Source: Thiotrichales bacterium | Lineage (GTDB): Bacteria > Pseudomonadota > Gammaproteobacteria > JAABTG01 | Assembly: GCA_011389995.1 (NCBI GenBank) | Contig: JAABTG010000009.1 | Span: forward strand, 13,482-77,481 | Direction: 5' to 3' | DNA: 64,000 bases | Shown: positions 3,947 to 56,751 of the stretch, piece after piece | How the letters are laid out: each line of letters begins with the position of its first letter | How positions within the stretch are numbered: the first letter of the stretch is position 1 | Position numbers and translations under genes: made by a program | The notes under the pieces: model-generated | What the model was told of the DNA's origin: nothing | Databases searched by the model: none | The model's input: the letters and a program-made list of their open reading frames with translations, nothing else

Positions 3947-5380
3947 TCAGCTGGCCGCCAGGGCGGCGACGCACAGGGTCAGCAGGGCCCCGGGAAACAG
4001 GCCGAGGCCCAGCACGGCGAGGCCATTGATGCTGACGGCGGCCTGCAGGTCACCGCCGGCGGTGATGGGGCTGGCGTCCTCGGGCTTGTCGAAGTACATG
4101 AGCTTGACCACCCGCAGGTAATAGAAGGCACCGATGATGGAAAACACCACGGCCACCACGGCGAGCCACACCATGTCCGCCGCCACCACCTCCCGCAGCA
4201 CGGACCACTTGGCCCAGAAACCCACGAAGGGGGGCACGCCTGCCATGGAGAACAGGAACACCATCATGATGAAGGCGAACCACGGGCTGCGCTCATTGAG
4301 GCCCTTGAAGTCCTCCAGGCGGTCCGCCTCGAAGCCGCCGCGGGACAGCAGCACGATCATACCGAAGCCACCGAGGCTCATGATGGCGTAGACGATGGCA
4401 TAGAACATGGAAGCGGCGTAGCCCGCCTCGGTGCCCGACAGCACGCCGAGGATCAGAAAACCCACGTGGGCGATGGTCGAATAGGCGAACATGCGCTTGA
4501 GGTTGGTCTGGGCGATGGCGATGACGTTACCCACCGCCATGGACAGGATGGAGAGGATAACCAGCATGGCCTGCCAGTCGGCCTGCAGGCCCTCCAGGCC
4601 GTCCACCAGCACCCGCATCACCATGGCGAAGGCCGCCATCTTGGGGGCCGAACCGATGAACAGGGTGACGGCGGTGGGGGCGCCGTGATAGACGTCGGGC
4701 AGCCACATGTGAAAGGGCACGGCGCCCAGTTTGAAGGCCAGGCCCACCACCAGGAACACCAGCCCGAACACCAGTACCGTGTCGTCCACGATGTCGCCGC
4801 TGGCCACCACCGCCGCGATCTCCCCCAGGTCCACGGTACCCGTACCGCCGTAGATCATGGAGATACCATAGAGCAGCATTCCCGACGCCAGGGCCCCCAG
4901 TACGAAGTACTTCATGGCCGCCTCGGAGGCATCCGCCGAATCCCGGTGCATGGCCACCATGGCGTAGAGACACAGGGATAGCAACTCCAGGCCCAGGTAG
5001 ATGGTGAGGAGGCTGTGGGCGGACACCATGATCATCATGCCGAGCACCGCGAACAGTCCCAGCACGTAGTACTCGCCCTTGAAGACGTTGCGCTCCCGCA
5101 GGTAGTCCTTGGAATAGGTGAAGGCAAAGAAGGCGATACCGGCGATGAAGGCCTTCAATACCGAACCCATGCCGTCCACCACCGCCGCGCCATGGAACAC
5201 CACCTGGGGCTCGGCGGGATAGAGGGCCACCGTGAGCCCCCCCGTGATGACCAGGGTCATGAGGGCCAGCTGGTAGGTCACCGCGCGATAGGCCTCGGGC
5301 AGGAAGGCATCCACGATGAGCACCACGCAGGCCATGGTGAGGAGAAACAGCTCGGGAGTGATGGCGACGAAGTCGGTCAT
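3947..5380 (-). CDS. nuoN: NADH-quinone oxidoreductase subunit N
   Basis: 477 aa, polytopic membrane protein with NuoN/ND2-type conserved motifs. It is the last gene of the nuo operon. Confidence 0.9.
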
Positions 5381-5391
5381 TGTTGGAAACC

Positions 5392-5419
5392 GGGAATAGG
5401 GAATAGGGAATAGGGAATG
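5392..5419. repeat. Heptanucleotide tandem array (GGGAATA)x4; left arm of the inverted repeat pair flanking the four-helix-bundle gene
   Basis: Direct read: gggaatagggaatagggaatagggaatgg. It lies between the nuoN start codon and the four-helix-bundle gene stop codon. Confidence 0.85.
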
Positions 5420-5422
5420 GCT

Positions 5423-5803
5423 TTAAAGGCGTCTGCGGGCATCCTGGATACTCCGGATGAATCCCGCAAGGAGACGGGACTCATTGGCCACTGTTTGAAA
5501 AATCTCATCATCTCTTTGCAGATATCCCAGTTCGCTCGCAATGATAAGTTGAGTATCCACTTCACTGAGCGAGCCACTTGCCACATCCAGGAACCTCAAC
5601 AATTCCTTATCGCTCCTTCGCGCGACACCCTCCGCAATATTGCTCGGAACAGATACAGACGCCCTGCGAAGCTGCGCGCAAAGGCCATATCGCTCATCTT
5701 TGGGGAACCGTCCAGTTAAATCGTAAACGGCCTTTACAAGAACGATCCCCTGTTTCCATACATCAAGCCTATAGTGGCGTCTCCACTTCACATCGGCATC
5801 CAT
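5423..5803 (-). CDS. Four-helix-bundle protein (TIGR02436, '23S rRNA intervening-sequence protein' family; related to DGR Avd) inserted inside the nuo operon
   Basis: 126 aa: RYGLCAQLRRASVSVPSNIAEGVARRSDKELLRFLDVASGSLSEVDTQLIIASELGYL matches the family signature (QIRRAAxSIxxNIAEG ... GSxxELETQLxIA). A strong SD (GAGGAGGG) sits 6 nt upstream. It is co-oriented with the nuo genes and flanked by inverted heptamer arrays. Confidence 0.85.
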   Translation of the reverse strand: MDADVKWRRHYRLDVWKQGIVLVKAVYDLTGRFPKDERYGLCAQLRRASVSVPSNIAEGVARRSDKELLRFLDVASGSLSEVDTQLIIASELGYLQRDDEIFQTVANESRLLAGFIRSIQDARRRL

Positions 5804-5851
5804 TCCGGTCCCTCCTCGGCCTCACCTGACCCATCCCCGTCCGGCTTCCTG

Positions 5852-5878
5852 CTATTCCCTATTCCCTATTCCCTATTC
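5852..5878. repeat. Heptanucleotide tandem array (TATTCCC)x~4; reverse complement of the (GGGAATA) array
   Basis: Direct read: ctattccctattccctattccctattc, between the nuoM stop (5907) and the four-helix-bundle gene start (5803). It is perfectly complementary to 5392-5419. Confidence 0.85.
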
Positions 5879-5906
5879 ACTCGCCTTTGAATCATTCCCT
5901 TTTCCC

Positions 5907-7424
5907 TCAAAGCTTCGACTGCACCATATGCCCGATCAGATGCTCCACCGTGGGATGCATCACCTCCAGAATGGGCTGGGGCCAGACCCCGAAGAGGATG
6001 ACCACCACGGCCAGGACGCCGAGGATCAGGAACTCCCGGGTGGCGAGGTCGCCGAGTCCGGCCACCTTGTCGTTGGCCACCTTGCCGTAGATGACCCGCT
6101 TGTACATCCACAGGTTGTAGGTGGCCCCCAGCAGCAGGATGCTGGCGGCCAGGAAGGCGTACCAGAAATTGGCCTGGAAGCTGGACAGGATGACCATGAA
6201 CTCACCCACGAAGCCGGAGGTACCCGGCAGGCCCGAGTTGGCCATGATGAACAGCATCATGAAGGCGGCGAATACCGGCATGGGATTGGCCACGCCGCCA
6301 TAGGCACCGATCTCGCGGGTGTGCATGCGGTCGTAGAGCACCCCCACGCACAGGAACAGGGCGCCGGAGATGAAGCCGTGGGAGATCATCTGCATCATCC
6401 CCCCCTCCATACCCAGGGCCGCCCCCTGGATGTCCCCGGTGTTGTCGAGGATGGCGAAGGCCACGAAGAAGCCCAGGGTGACGAAGCCCATGTGGGAGAT
6501 GCTGGAGTAGGCCACCAGCTTCTTGAGGTCCTTCTGGACGATGGCCACGAAGCCGATGTAGACCACGGCGATGAGGGACAGGCCGATCATGAGCCAGTCC
6601 AGCTCGCGGCTGGCATCGGGGGTGATGGGCAGGCTGAAGCGCAGGAAGCCGTAGCCGCCCATCTTGAGCATGATGGCCGCCAGCACCACGGAGCCGCCGG
6701 TGGGGGCCTCCACGTGGGCATCCGGCAGCCAGGTGTGCACCGGCCACATGGGCACCTTCACCGCGAAGGCGATGAGGAAGGCCAGGAAGATGAGAATCTG
6801 CGCCGACAGGCCGATGGAGACCACGTGCATGTCCTGGATGGCGAAGCTGCCGGCCTGACCGTAGAGATAGAGCAGGGCCACCAGCATGAACACCGAGCCC
6901 AGGAAGGTATAGAGAAAAAACTTGATGGTGGCGTAGATGCGGTTGGGCCCGCCCCAGATGCCGATGATGAGAAACATGGGGATGAGCATGGCCTCCCAGA
7001 ACACGTAGAACAGCATGGCGTCCATGGCGGCGAACACGCCGTTCATCAGGCCTTCCATGATGAGGAAGGCCGCCATGTACTGGCCCACCTTGTACTGGAT
7101 GACCTCCCAGGCGGAGATCACCACCAGCACCGTGGTGAAGGTGGTCAGCAGTATCAGGGGCATGGAGAAGCCGTCCACCCCGAGGTGATAGTTGATGCTG
7201 AAGGCCTCGATCCAGGGCATCTTCTCCACGAACTGCATGGCCGGCGTGGTGGTGTCGAAGCCGGTGTAGAGGGGGATGGAGAGCAGGAAGGTGGCCAGGG
7301 ACACCACCAGGGCGATCACCCGTGCACCCTGGGCGTTGCGCTCGCCGGCGGCGAGGATCCACGCGCCACCCAGGATGGGCAGCCACACCAGCAGGCTCAG
7401 AAGGGGCAGTTTCTCGAACAGCAT
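5907..7424 (-). CDS. nuoM: NADH-quinone oxidoreductase subunit M
   Basis: 505 aa; NuoM/ND4 family membrane subunit. Confidence 0.9.
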   Translation of the reverse strand: MLFEKLPLLSLLVWLPILGGAWILAAGERNAQGARVIALVVSLATFLLSIPLYTGFDTTTPAMQFVEKMPWIEAFSINYHLGVDGFSMPLILLTTFTTVLVVISAWEVIQYKVGQYMAAFLIMEGLMNGVFAAMDAMLFYVFWEAMLIPMFLIIGIWGGPNRIYATIKFFLYTFLGSVFMLVALLYLYGQAGSFAIQDMHVVSIGLSAQILIFLAFLIAFAVKVPMWPVHTWLPDAHVEAPTGGSVVLAAIMLKMGGYGFLRFSLPITPDASRELDWLMIGLSLIAVVYIGFVAIVQKDLKKLVAYSSISHMGFVTLGFFVAFAILDNTGDIQGAALGMEGGMMQMISHGFISGALFLCVGVLYDRMHTREIGAYGGVANPMPVFAAFMMLFIMANSGLPGTSGFVGEFMVILSSFQANFWYAFLAASILLLGATYNLWMYKRVIYGKVANDKVAGLGDLATREFLILGVLAVVVILFGVWPQPILEVMHPTVEHLIGHMVQSKL

Positions 7425-14448: not shown

Positions 14449-14460
14449 TTTCAGGAGCGA

Positions 14461-14490
14461 GGGAATAGGGAATAGGGAATAGGGAATAGC
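14461..14490. repeat. Heptanucleotide tandem array (GGGAATA)x4 in the nuoG-nuoF spacer
   Basis: Direct read: gggaatagggaatagggaatagggaatagc. Same unit as the arrays flanking the four-helix-bundle gene. Confidence 0.85.
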
Positions 14491-14533
14491 AAGCTACCGC
14501 CCCGGGTCGGCCGCGGCGCGGTGCCCCTAACGA

Positions 14534-14563
14534 CCAATGACGAATGACCAGTGACCAATGACA
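14534..14563. repeat. Degenerate heptanucleotide tandem array (CCAATGA/CGAATGA/CCAGTGA)x4 in the nuoG-nuoF spacer
   Basis: Direct read: gaccaatgacgaatgaccagtgaccaatgac, ending at the nuoF stop codon. Confidence 0.8.
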
Positions 14564-19543: not shown

Positions 19544-19627
19544 GGTGCCGATGGCCGGAGTCGAACCGGCACGGCTTGCGCCACTGCCCCCTCAAGACAG
19601 CGTGTCTACCAATTCCACCACATCGGC
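19544..19627 (-). tRNA. tRNA-Leu (anticodon GAG)
   Basis: The reverse complement reads GCCGATGTGGTGGAATTGGTAGACACGCTGTCTTGAGGGGGCAGTGGCGCAAGCCGTGCCGGTTCGACTCCGGCCATCGGCACCA. It has an acceptor stem, a D-loop (GGTAGA), anticodon loop TTGAGGG, a long variable arm and a T-loop (GTTCGACTC), plus an encoded CCA. The position after secG is the classic context. Confidence 0.85.
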
Positions 19628-32969: not shown

Positions 32970-33827
<858 letters not shown>

Positions 33828-33861
33828 TGCTGCACTCAACTCCTTCACTCTGCCGGCCAAG

Positions 33862-33903
33862 AACAAAGGACAAAGGACAAAGGACAAAGGACAAAGGACA
33901 AGG
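33862..33903. repeat. Heptanucleotide tandem array (GGACAAA)x~5, dapB-dnaJ spacer; near-inverted relative to the (TTTGTCA) array
   Basis: Direct read: aacaaaggacaaaggacaaaggacaaaggacaaggacaagg, ending at the dnaJ stop. Confidence 0.8.
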
Positions 33904-33904
33904 A

Positions 33905-35029
33905 TCATATCTTCATGTCCTCGAAAAACTTCTTCACCCCGTCCAGCCACGACGACGCCCGGGGCGAATGGCGGTCGCCGCCATGGGTCATGGTCTCCTC
34001 GAACTCCTTCAGCAGACCCTTCTGCTTCTTGTTGAGGTTCACCGGTGTCTCGACGATGGCCCGGCAGATGAGGTCGCCTTCATATCCCCCCCGCACGGAA
34101 CGCACGCCCCGGCCGCGGATGCGGAAGAGTTTTCCGCTCTGGGTCTCGGCCGGGATCTTCAGGACCACCCGGCCGTCGAGGGTGGGCACCTCGAGCTCAC
34201 CACCGAGGGCCGCCATGGTGAAGCTGATGGGCACCTCACAGTAGAGGTTGTTCTTCTCGCGGCTGAAAATGGGATGGGGACGGATGTTGATCTGGACATA
34301 GAGATCACCGGGCGGTCCGCCGTTCTCCCCCGGCTCCCCTTCCCCCGCCAGACGTATGCGGTCCCCCGTATCCACCCCCGCCGGCACCTTCACCGACAGG
34401 GTCTTCTCGCTCTTGACCCGCCCGGCGCCCCGGCAGGTGGTGCAGGGGTCGTCGATGATGGTGCCCCGCCCGCGGCAGGTGGGGCAGGTCTGCTGGACCG
34501 AGAAGAAGCCCTGTTGCAGGCGCACCTGGCCGGCGCCGTGGCAGGTGGTGCAGGTCACCGGCGACGAACCCTTCCGGGCCCCCGAGCCACCGCAGGTGTC
34601 GCATGTCTCGGCGGTGGGGATACGGATGGAGGCCGTGGTGCCGGCCACTGCCTCCTCCAGGGACAACTCCAGGTCGTAGCGCAGGTCGGCACCGCGATAG
34701 ACACGGCTGCCGCCACGACCGCCACCGCCGAAGATGTCGCCGAACATCTCGTCGAAGATGTCCCTGAATCCGGCACCGCCGCCCCCGCTCATGCCCGCGG
34801 CGCCTTCCACGCCCGCATGACCGAACTGGTCGTAGGCGGCACGCTTGCGGGCATCCGCCAGCACCTCGTAGGCCTCCTTCGCCTCCTTGAACAGGGTCTC
34901 GGACTCCATGTCTCCGGGGTTGCGATCCGGATGGTGCTTCATGGCCAGCCGCCGGTAGGCCTTCTTGATATCGGCCTCGCTGGCATTACGGGTCACGCCC
35001 AGGACTTCGTAGTAATCGCGTTTTGACAT
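33905..35029 (-). CDS. dnaJ: Molecular chaperone DnaJ
   Basis: 374 aa; J domain (DYYEVLGV ... HPDRNP), G/F-rich linker, and four CxxCxGxG zinc-finger repeats. Confidence 0.95.
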
Positions 35030-56630: not shown

Positions 56631-56704
56631 CTCATGCGGCTAGGGCGCGTAGCCGAGCGGGGGTCGGGAGTCGGGGGTGGACCAGCACTAAGGGCATCAC
56701 AATT

Positions 56705-56751
56705 AAAAATTCAAAATTCAAAATTCAAAATTGAAACCGCATAGCGGTTTC
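56705..56751. repeat. Heptanucleotide tandem array (AAAATTC)x~4 followed by an 8-bp-stem hairpin (gaaaccgc-ata-gcggtttc)
   Basis: Direct read: aaaaattcaaaattcaaaattcaaaattgaaaccgcatagcggtttc. AT-rich island ~260 bp upstream of fdhD. Confidence 0.8.

Follow-up and report, generated by a model that had tools for sequence, protein, structure and literature searches.

Why are nuoM and nuoN separated by 526 bp in the Complex I (nuo) operon of a Thiotrichales bacterium? We addressed this question in a stretch of 64,000 nucleotides from contig JAABTG010000009.1 (the window), where the spacer occupies positions 5381–5906. Both flanking genes are on the minus strand: nuoM (5907–7424, 505 residues; PF00361, 261 bits, and PF01059) lies upstream of the spacer, and nuoN (3947–5380, 477 residues; PF00361, 260 bits) lies downstream. 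An original prediction held that the gap contains a co-oriented gene for a 126-residue protein, bracketed by inverted heptamer arrays in the manner of the intervening sequences (IVSs) of 23S rRNA. The gap and the gene were found as described. We conclude, with a probability of approximately 0.6, that the element is a resident IVS-type cassette, self-contained and polar, which was inserted into the spacer of one clade and was later exchanged for divergent versions.

The gene in the spacer (5423–5803, minus strand) encodes a four-helix-bundle (4HB) protein. It matches PF05635 with 113.6 bits (cut-off, 33.8) and TIGR02436 with 110.7 bits (cut-off, 24) and therefore belongs to the predicted family, which is also known as S23p or the 23S rRNA IVS protein. 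The strong Shine-Dalgarno (SD) sequence attributed to it was also confirmed; GAGGAGG is read at 5811–5817 on the minus strand, 7 nt before the ATG. The nearest solved relative is PDB 2GSC (XCC0516 from Xanthomonas campestris; E = 3e-31, residues 7–125), which has been described as a homopentamer of four-helix bundles (PMC4990558). The residues R47-x3-S51-x3-N55-x2-E58 are invariant across an alignment of 23 sequences (A1), and R-x3-S-x3-N-x2-E forms the core of the family motif GxxRxxxSxxxNxxE (PMC3936711). Zhang and Ye found 23S_rRNA_IVP genes scattered in cas loci (PMC3936711). The family annotated as "four helix bundle protein" is large, with 21,135 clusters at 50% identity (E ≤ 1e-3). The dN/dS ratio between the window gene and that of a close relative, L001, is 0.12; therefore, the protein is under purifying selection.

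The protein shares a homologous small 4HB fold, pentameric in the solved relative 2GSC, with Avd, the accessory protein of diversity-generating retroelements (DGRs). However, its scores are far below the cut-offs of the Avd models (21.9 against 80 for NF033474 and 17.3 against 40 for PF22296), and its neighbors are nuo genes. Ten large minus-strand open reading frames (ORFs) between 1224 and 18323 were scanned, and they encode nuo subunits, a rhodanese protein, a BOF/DUF5666 protein and one protein without a Pfam match; nuoC to nuoL were confirmed upstream of nuoM. No reverse transcriptase was present among them, no template repeat/variable repeat pair was found, and the heptamer arrays are the only repeats in the spacer. 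Therefore, the locus is not a DGR, as the original prediction had maintained. A role in defence is also without support, with no homologue in phage genomes at E ≤ 1e-5 and no match in PADLOC. There is a weak match to PHROG 3206, and the window contains no second 4HB gene.

The gene is indeed bracketed by inverted (GGGAATA)4 arrays. In the mRNA sense, the 5' arm is purine-rich, (GAAUAGG)~4 at 5851–5881, and the 3' arm is pyrimidine-rich, (CUAUUCC)~4 at 5392–5421, both on the minus strand; the two arms were located by Tandem Repeats Finder, by an inverted-repeat search (repeat I1) and in the minimum free energy (MFE) fold. The first program reported GGGAATA × 3.9 at 5392–5418 and CTATTCC × 3.9 at 5852–5878, both with a period of 7 and 100% identity. 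The 3' arm starts 1 nt past the stop codon of the cassette gene and ends approximately 11 nt before the nuoN ATG. As an inverted repeat, the arrays are complementary over 28 nt at 96%; shifting the register by one unit gives 22 nt at 100%. In the mRNA-sense fold of 5371–5916, the arrays form 25 + 2 bp on the two sides of one mismatch, with the whole ORF and its SD sequence inside. The MFE is −206.7 kcal/mol (z = −4.15), and none of 100 shuffles was as stable. Thus, the expected pairing around the gene was obtained, but the expected perfect duplex of approximately 27 bp is either 25 bp and perfect or 28 bp with one mismatch.

The heptamers are concentrated in the window far beyond chance. GGGAATAGGGAATA, with at most two mismatches, occurs 11 times against 0.13 expected, an excess of approximately 80-fold, and none of 100 shuffles reached 11. 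One of the matches, with two mismatches, lies directly past the nuoM stop codon (5893–5906, minus strand), where degenerate heptamer-like units read GGGAAAAGGGAATG in the mRNA sense. These units pair weakly with the 3' array (inverted-repeat pairs I5, I7 and I10) and make up its partner's decayed outer margin, that of the 5' array. A scan of 5200–6100 detected neither a promoter-like nor a terminator-like site; therefore, the nuo mRNA probably includes the cassette. The spacer matches no Rfam family at E ≤ 1, and no SD-like motif is read between the 3' arm and the nuoN ATG in any of the four carriers of the cassette.

The three other carriers are the loci of the three closest homologues (L001, L002 and L003), which are 90%, 73%, and 65% identical to the window protein in a database of 5.8 billion proteins. 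An exact-sequence look-up of the window protein gave no match in the collection searched, and the carriers were reached through these homologues. All three genes lie between nuoM and nuoN. The window NuoM is 95–99% identical to that of L001 and L002, and NuoN is 89–98% identical to that of L001–L003. Inverted heptamer arrays bracket the 4HB gene in all three loci, and the heptamers differ. The upstream array of L001 is a mosaic of GTGAATA and GGGAATA units, and its downstream array contains two CTATTCC units. The upstream array of L002 (3563–3650) consists of three GGGAATA units of the window type, GGGACTA, six GTGAATA and two GTGAATG; its downstream units are CCATTCA and CTATTCA, and only the gene-proximal 5' units match the 3' arm. 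L003 has (GGGAAAA)8 upstream and ATTTCCC-type units downstream. We aligned the innermost 18 stem pairs of the four cassettes. Standard pairs fill 93% of the cells, and 6 of the 18 pairs have changed on both sides, so the arms stay complementary even as their sequence drifts. Among 500 shuffles, only one was as good, and sliding the partner by 1–3 columns left 40–51% of the cells paired with 0–1 compensatory pairs. The original prediction had named close relatives with the gene but without inverted arrays as the finding that would count against it, and the opposite was observed.

A comparison of spacers in more distant relatives showed that the site can be empty. We collected 80 metagenomic contigs encoding NuoN with 55–70% identity, about 70 of which include the nuoM end. 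The nuoM–nuoN gap in these approximately 70 relatives is 4–151 nt, and none of the 80 contigs encodes the 4HB gene. The cassette is therefore sporadic, being carried by four close genomes but lacking in about 70 nuo operons of more distant relatives, and it is an insertion into the nuoM–nuoN spacer of one gammaproteobacterial clade. In a relative with NuoN 61% identical (L144), the gene-less spacer of 112 nt (1889–2000) is itself a heptamer-array hairpin (z = −4.3). Its TAGTCGT-type units pair with TAACGAC, and the unit resembles that of some 4HB cassettes (GTTAG-type). This hairpin may be a remnant, a forerunner or the result of an independent arrival there.

The history of the cassette differs from that of its flanks. 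Between the window and L001, synonymous divergence is concordant (nuoM, 0.27; nuoN, 0.31; 4HB gene, 0.40). NuoM and NuoN of the window and L002 are 98–99% identical, with dS values of 0.17 and 0.25, respectively, whereas the 4HB proteins are only 64% identical and the synonymous sites of their genes are saturated (pS, 0.84). In the comparison with L003, dS is 0.45 for nuoN and 2.0 for the 4HB gene. At the nuoM end, the window and L002 share 91% of their nucleotides; this value drops to 25–65% between the 5' array and the 3' arm and recovers to 98% precisely at the nuoN ATG. The simplest reading is that the cassette was replaced or converted in place and that the breakpoints fall within the arrays or next to them. 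The mosaics of L001 and L002 agree with this, and the L002 array looks like the scar of an exchange inside it.

These data bear on the idea that the gene is an ancestral, domesticated accessory gene of Complex I with a respiratory function and that the repeats are an ordinary intercistronic stabilizer. Four related genomes keep a co-oriented gene under purifying selection at the exact position, as this idea would have it. However, about 70 more distant nuo operons lack it, and it has been replaced by a synonymously saturated version in a nearly identical background. Moreover, its GC content at third codon positions (GC3) is 0.51, against 0.90–0.94 in nuoM and nuoN, and the family is found in unrelated operons of all kinds. 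We regard a respiratory role as barely credible.

The heptamers themselves resemble repeats that are already known. Rehm et al. described (GGGANTN)n arrays, approximately 186 per Xanthomonas genome with about 70 convergent pairs, which are intergenic, mostly placed between co-oriented genes, usually of approximately four units and variable in length between species (PMC4692102). GGGAATC is the repeat of this type in Xanthomonas, and GGGGA(C/T)T repeats were described in Nostoc; oligonucleotides of the (GGGANTN)n type formed G-quadruplexes (G4s) in vitro, and G4s were proposed while the function was left open (PMC4692102). That paper is silent on 4HB genes, IVSs and RNase III (PMC4692102). The window arrays conform to the definition of at least two tandem units, intergenic and often in convergent pairs; GGGAATA × 3.9 occurs twice in inverted orientation, and a third array is present at 14461–14488. 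They also share the consensus, the approximate number of units and the variable length. Whereas the published repeats were treated as G4-forming simple sequence repeats, those of the window form both arms of a gene cassette. The 4HB genes of Xanthomonas and Nostoc among the loci sampled are likewise flanked by such repeats (L068, L072, L167 and L168). Full-text searches, whose coverage is incomplete, found no paper joining the 4HB family to heptamer arrays; a prior description is possible.

Could the arrays simply be G4s, as proposed for Xanthomonas GGGAATC, with (GGGAATA)4 modulating transcription or translation and the gene unrelated to it? The window array does have G3 tracts separated by 4-nt loops and fits the (GGGANTN)n consensus (PMC4692102). 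However, the cassette of L002 at the same site uses GTGAATA, which lacks G tracts, and most arrays of the family have a GTGA core that cannot form a G4. We therefore rejected the G4 as a general principle. It also predicts neither the conserved complementarity nor the fixed polarity relative to the gene, and we consider it very improbable at this locus.

The same architecture surrounds 4HB homologues in other operon spacers across phyla. We examined 80 homologue loci of 45–62% identity from Proteobacteria, Bacteroidota, Acidobacteriota, Nitrospirota, Planctomycetota, Chloroflexota, Omnitrophota, Margulisbacteria and others. Of the 80 genes, 55% had a period-7 array of three or more units within 150 nt, compared with 1.3% of control windows from the same loci, and periods of 5, 6, 8, 9 and 10 were essentially absent beside the 4HB genes. 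The median of the best upstream–downstream stem score was 38 at the real loci, against 23 when arms were re-paired between loci and 24 at pseudo-gene positions. A score of 40 was reached by 48% of the real loci but by 4% of the re-paired arms and 1% of the other positions (Mann-Whitney p ~ 1e-23). The arms therefore match within a locus and not between loci.

The strong stems share a detailed design. A period of 7 was found in 43 of 51, and the 5' arm was more than 60% purine in 39 and less than 40% purine in 2. Typically, the 5' arm ends 22 nt before the start codon and the 3' arm begins 11 nt after the stop codon (medians). GTGA is contained in 17 of 38 heptamer units against 7% expected, and the in-phase consensus is G-(T/G)-G-A-N-N-N.

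Strong stems enclose 4HB genes inside conserved operons with very different neighbors, assigned by Pfam: dnaK and dnaJ (L022), a GDP-mannose dehydratase gene (gmd) and an epimerase gene (L042), ahcY and metF (L067), hemCD and hemE (L059), leuB and asd (L060), and genes for HlyD and an ABC transporter (L065). Both neighbors are co-oriented in 48 of 73 loci, a count that is only indicative because the ORF calls were crude and mis-assigned L001 and L002. Matches on plasmids come almost entirely from heterocystous cyanobacteria. A Nostoc edaphicum plasmid carries a cassette with (GGGAGTA)8 and (TCCCTAC)4-5 arms between two ribonucleotide reductase genes, in opposite orientation. Such antisense placement between two co-oriented operon genes is seen on Calothrix and Nostoc plasmids (L166:1483–1863 and L167:1486–1854), where the genes are those for HlyD and an ABC exporter in one case and nrd beta and alpha in the other. 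The orientation of the cassette relative to the host operon is thus not fixed. An antisense 4HB gene would need its own promoter. Whichever strand is transcribed, the inverted repeat yields the same hairpin, which would thus still form in the host transcript. At L012 (190–1050), one 4HB gene is preceded by two sets of GTGAACG/GTAAACG arrays and followed by two sets complementary to them; the locus also has a masked (N) stretch and may be a nested or duplicated cassette.

None of this takes place in rRNA. The window contains no rRNA according to Rfam, where the sole match at the gathering score is a tRNA gene just upstream of the nuo operon (19546–19627, minus strand; RF00005, 50.7 bits), and neither the window nor the 83 family loci sampled showed similarity to 23S rRNA. 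Therefore, operon spacers look like the usual habitat of the family and the rRNA IVS like a special case. The original prediction described an IVS architecture transplanted into an mRNA. The same design is indeed found outside rRNA, but it is not an oddity there, with none of the 83 loci in rRNA.

The best-studied relative of the cassette is the IVS in helix 45 of Coxiella burnetii 23S rRNA, which contains an S23p (PF05635) ORF and whose termini form a 28-bp stem (PMC4990558). Its 5' arm has two or three tandem GACAGAT heptamers, the number of which varies between strains (PMC4990558). RNase III cuts this IVS within the stem, as demonstrated in vitro and by RACE mapping of the ends, and the IVS has been treated as a selfish, horizontally acquired element of unknown origin with a decaying ORF whose protein is apparently not made (PMC4990558). 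The 23S rRNA IVS of Leptospira is also cited there as carrying an S23p ORF (PMC4990558). The nuo cassette resembles the Coxiella IVS in its PF05635 gene, its unit of approximately 430–530 nt, its stem of approximately 28 bp enclosing the ORF, its tandem heptamers of variable copy number in the 5' arm and its sporadic distribution, which has a horizontal pattern. It differs from the rRNA IVSs of helix 9, 25 or 45 in that it lies in the spacer of an mRNA operon and not in an rRNA helix, and from the Coxiella IVS in that the gene in its loop has a strong SD sequence and is under purifying selection. The suggestion that a selfish IVS-type element is able to invade non-rRNA loci is supported by the empty sites, the replacement in place, the occurrence in other operons and the Coxiella precedent.

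The resident cassette would work as follows. The unit is ordered as a purine-rich heptamer array, an SD sequence and PF05635 4HB gene, and a complementary pyrimidine-rich array. In the transcript, the arms would close a duplex of 25–28 bp around the whole gene, and RNase III would cut this duplex, as it does in the Coxiella IVS. By this analogy, cutting would release the cassette RNA and separate nuoA–M from nuoN; the nuoN segment would then begin with a residual half-stem approximately 11 nt before the ATG. The hairpin may let the insertion be tolerated in essential transcripts, whether these are rRNAs or operon mRNAs. Recombination within the arrays would be the simplest fit to the mosaic arrays and could account for the swapping of cassettes.

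Hairpins between cistrons that are processed by RNase III occur in phage T7 early mRNA and in rpsO-pnp, and comparable stems occur in rRNA precursors. The cassette resembles them as a long, nearly perfect duplex between the cistrons of one transcript. However, its duplex encloses a whole gene, is built of tandem heptamers and moves with the gene between loci.

Several observations weigh against this explanation. Cleavage by RNase III at the nuo cassette is proposed by analogy, and the analogy with Coxiella is imperfect because the 4HB gene here is under purifying selection while the Coxiella protein is apparently not made. The 80 homologue loci are the matches most similar to the query, which limits the generality to this subfamily, and only about half of them have a clear stem. 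Stem mismatches comprise 31 G:U-compatible and 49 A:C types, which gives no RNA-level signal over a DNA-level one, although cassettes in either orientation to the host transcript weaken this test. No transposase or integrase was found near the cassette in the nuo neighborhood of the window or at the L001–L003 loci, and target-site duplications were not detected: the longest shared word outside the arms averaged 3.44 nt against 3.35 nt in shuffled pairs. Finally, the low GC3 of the gene is weakened as a sign of recent transfer, since the GC content of the 4HB ORF is below that of the flanking DNA in 81 of 81 loci, by about 6–9 points, and tracks host GC with a slope of 0.95. Such a systematic shift toward AT is typical of mobile or weakly expressed genes.

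Heptamer arrays are also found in the window apart from the cassette. The third perfect (GGGAATA)4 array (14461–14488) lies in the nuoF–nuoG spacer (14449–14563) and reads CUAUUCC in the nuo mRNA, the sequence of the 3' arm of the cassette. In principle, it could pair with the 5' arm of the cassette, located 8.6 kb downstream on that transcript; alternatively, it may be an arm that remained when a cassette was lost. Next to it, at 14532–14562, is an unrelated (GACCAAT)-type array, with which it does not pair (z = +0.9). In the dnaJ–dapB spacer, between minus-strand genes, (GTCATTT)n and (AAGGACA)n arrays form an ORF-less hairpin at 33788–33910 (MFE, −47.5 kcal/mol; z = −5.2). This hairpin is approximately 86% complementary with a mismatch every 7 nt, and its pyrimidine arm comes first, opposite to the polarity of the 4HB cassettes. 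A (TCAAAAT)5.7 array at 56697–56736 is very AT-rich for a genome of 66% GC; no 4HB gene adjoins it, and it is followed by a short GC hairpin (gaaaccgc...gcggtttc).

The ORF-less versions (L144 and the hairpin at 33788–33910) and the inverted repeats in spacers recall MITEs (miniature inverted-repeat transposable elements) and repetitive extragenic palindromes. The cassette differs from these in the absence of a target-site duplication or cognate transposase and in having arrays as arms, with a unit that differs by locus. Membership among MITE or insertion sequence-type elements was therefore rejected, there being no target-site duplication and no transposase in the neighborhood. In a broader version of the idea, the cassette might be a mobile element at the DNA level, with the arrays serving as terminal inverted repeats or as hairpin or cruciform sites in single-stranded DNA that are used by a recombinase or transposase in trans, or by the 4HB protein itself. 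The RNA hairpin would then be incidental. The empty nuoM–nuoN sites and the exchange in place agree with this, as do the lack of a G:U bias among the stem mismatches, the cassettes in either orientation and the MITE-like ORF-less heptamer hairpins; the conserved G(T/G)GA core and fixed polarity suggest recognition by a protein and not mere pairing. Set against these points are the missing target-site duplications, the missing transposase or integrase nearby, a 4HB family with no known catalytic motif, and the fact that the one experimentally studied member of the design, the Coxiella IVS, is processed as RNA. We judge a purely DNA-level element to be unlikely, although mobility at the DNA level is not exclusive of the IVS-type cassette and is compatible with it.

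A protein that reads the repeats is also suggested by their strict 7-nt period and conserved G(T/G)GA core, and the pentameric, Avd-like 4HB protein would be the obvious candidate. Avd binds nucleic acid. Taken further, the units could be tandem binding sites for the pentameric 4HB protein, one per subunit, in an autoregulatory ribonucleoprotein that controls the translation or stability of its own or the neighboring messages, with complementarity being secondary. The strict period, the four conserved and three variable positions of the unit, the described homopentamer of 2GSC, the relation to the accessory protein of a reverse-transcription system and the purifying selection on the protein are all in line with such an array. 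However, binding sites alone do not require arms whose complementarity is kept through compensatory changes, and both solo arrays and ORF-less hairpins are found well away from any 4HB gene. A binding array as the whole explanation seems to us quite unlikely.

The nature and origin of ORF-bearing rRNA IVSs, the role of the large 4HB family and the excess of heptanucleotide tandem repeats in many bacterial genomes have been treated as three separate puzzles. The nuo locus and its relatives suggest that they are one object. We tentatively extend the explanation to a single pan-bacterial class, a proposal that is possible but that we would not yet call probable: PF05635 genes with inverted G(T/G)GA-core heptamer arrays would be polar, self-contained cassettes that colonize spacers in essential operons and, as a special case, rRNA helices, are exchanged in place, and leave ORF-less hairpins and solo arrays behind. 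Such a class would explain the origin of ORF-bearing rRNA IVSs and much of the heptanucleotide-repeat excess, including the Xanthomonas GGGAATC repeats and the short tandemly repeated repetitive (STRR) sequences of cyanobacteria, and its pentameric 4HB protein would read the 7-nt repeats. The original STRR heptamers are CCCCAGT, TTGGTCA and CAACAGT, and they may be comparable with the arrays described here.

The nuo copy looks typical of a widespread class of cassettes, and it is the IVS in rRNA that seems exceptional. Xanthomonas, Nostoc, Zoogloea and Oryzomonas are among the cultivable hosts in which the class can be investigated. The swapping of cassettes between nearly identical genomes points to an unrecognized mechanism of exchange. 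If our explanation is correct, core-operon transcripts, including those for Complex I, dnaK-dnaJ, and the haem and methionine genes, carry a built-in duplex, which could split or re-time the expression of the downstream cistrons.

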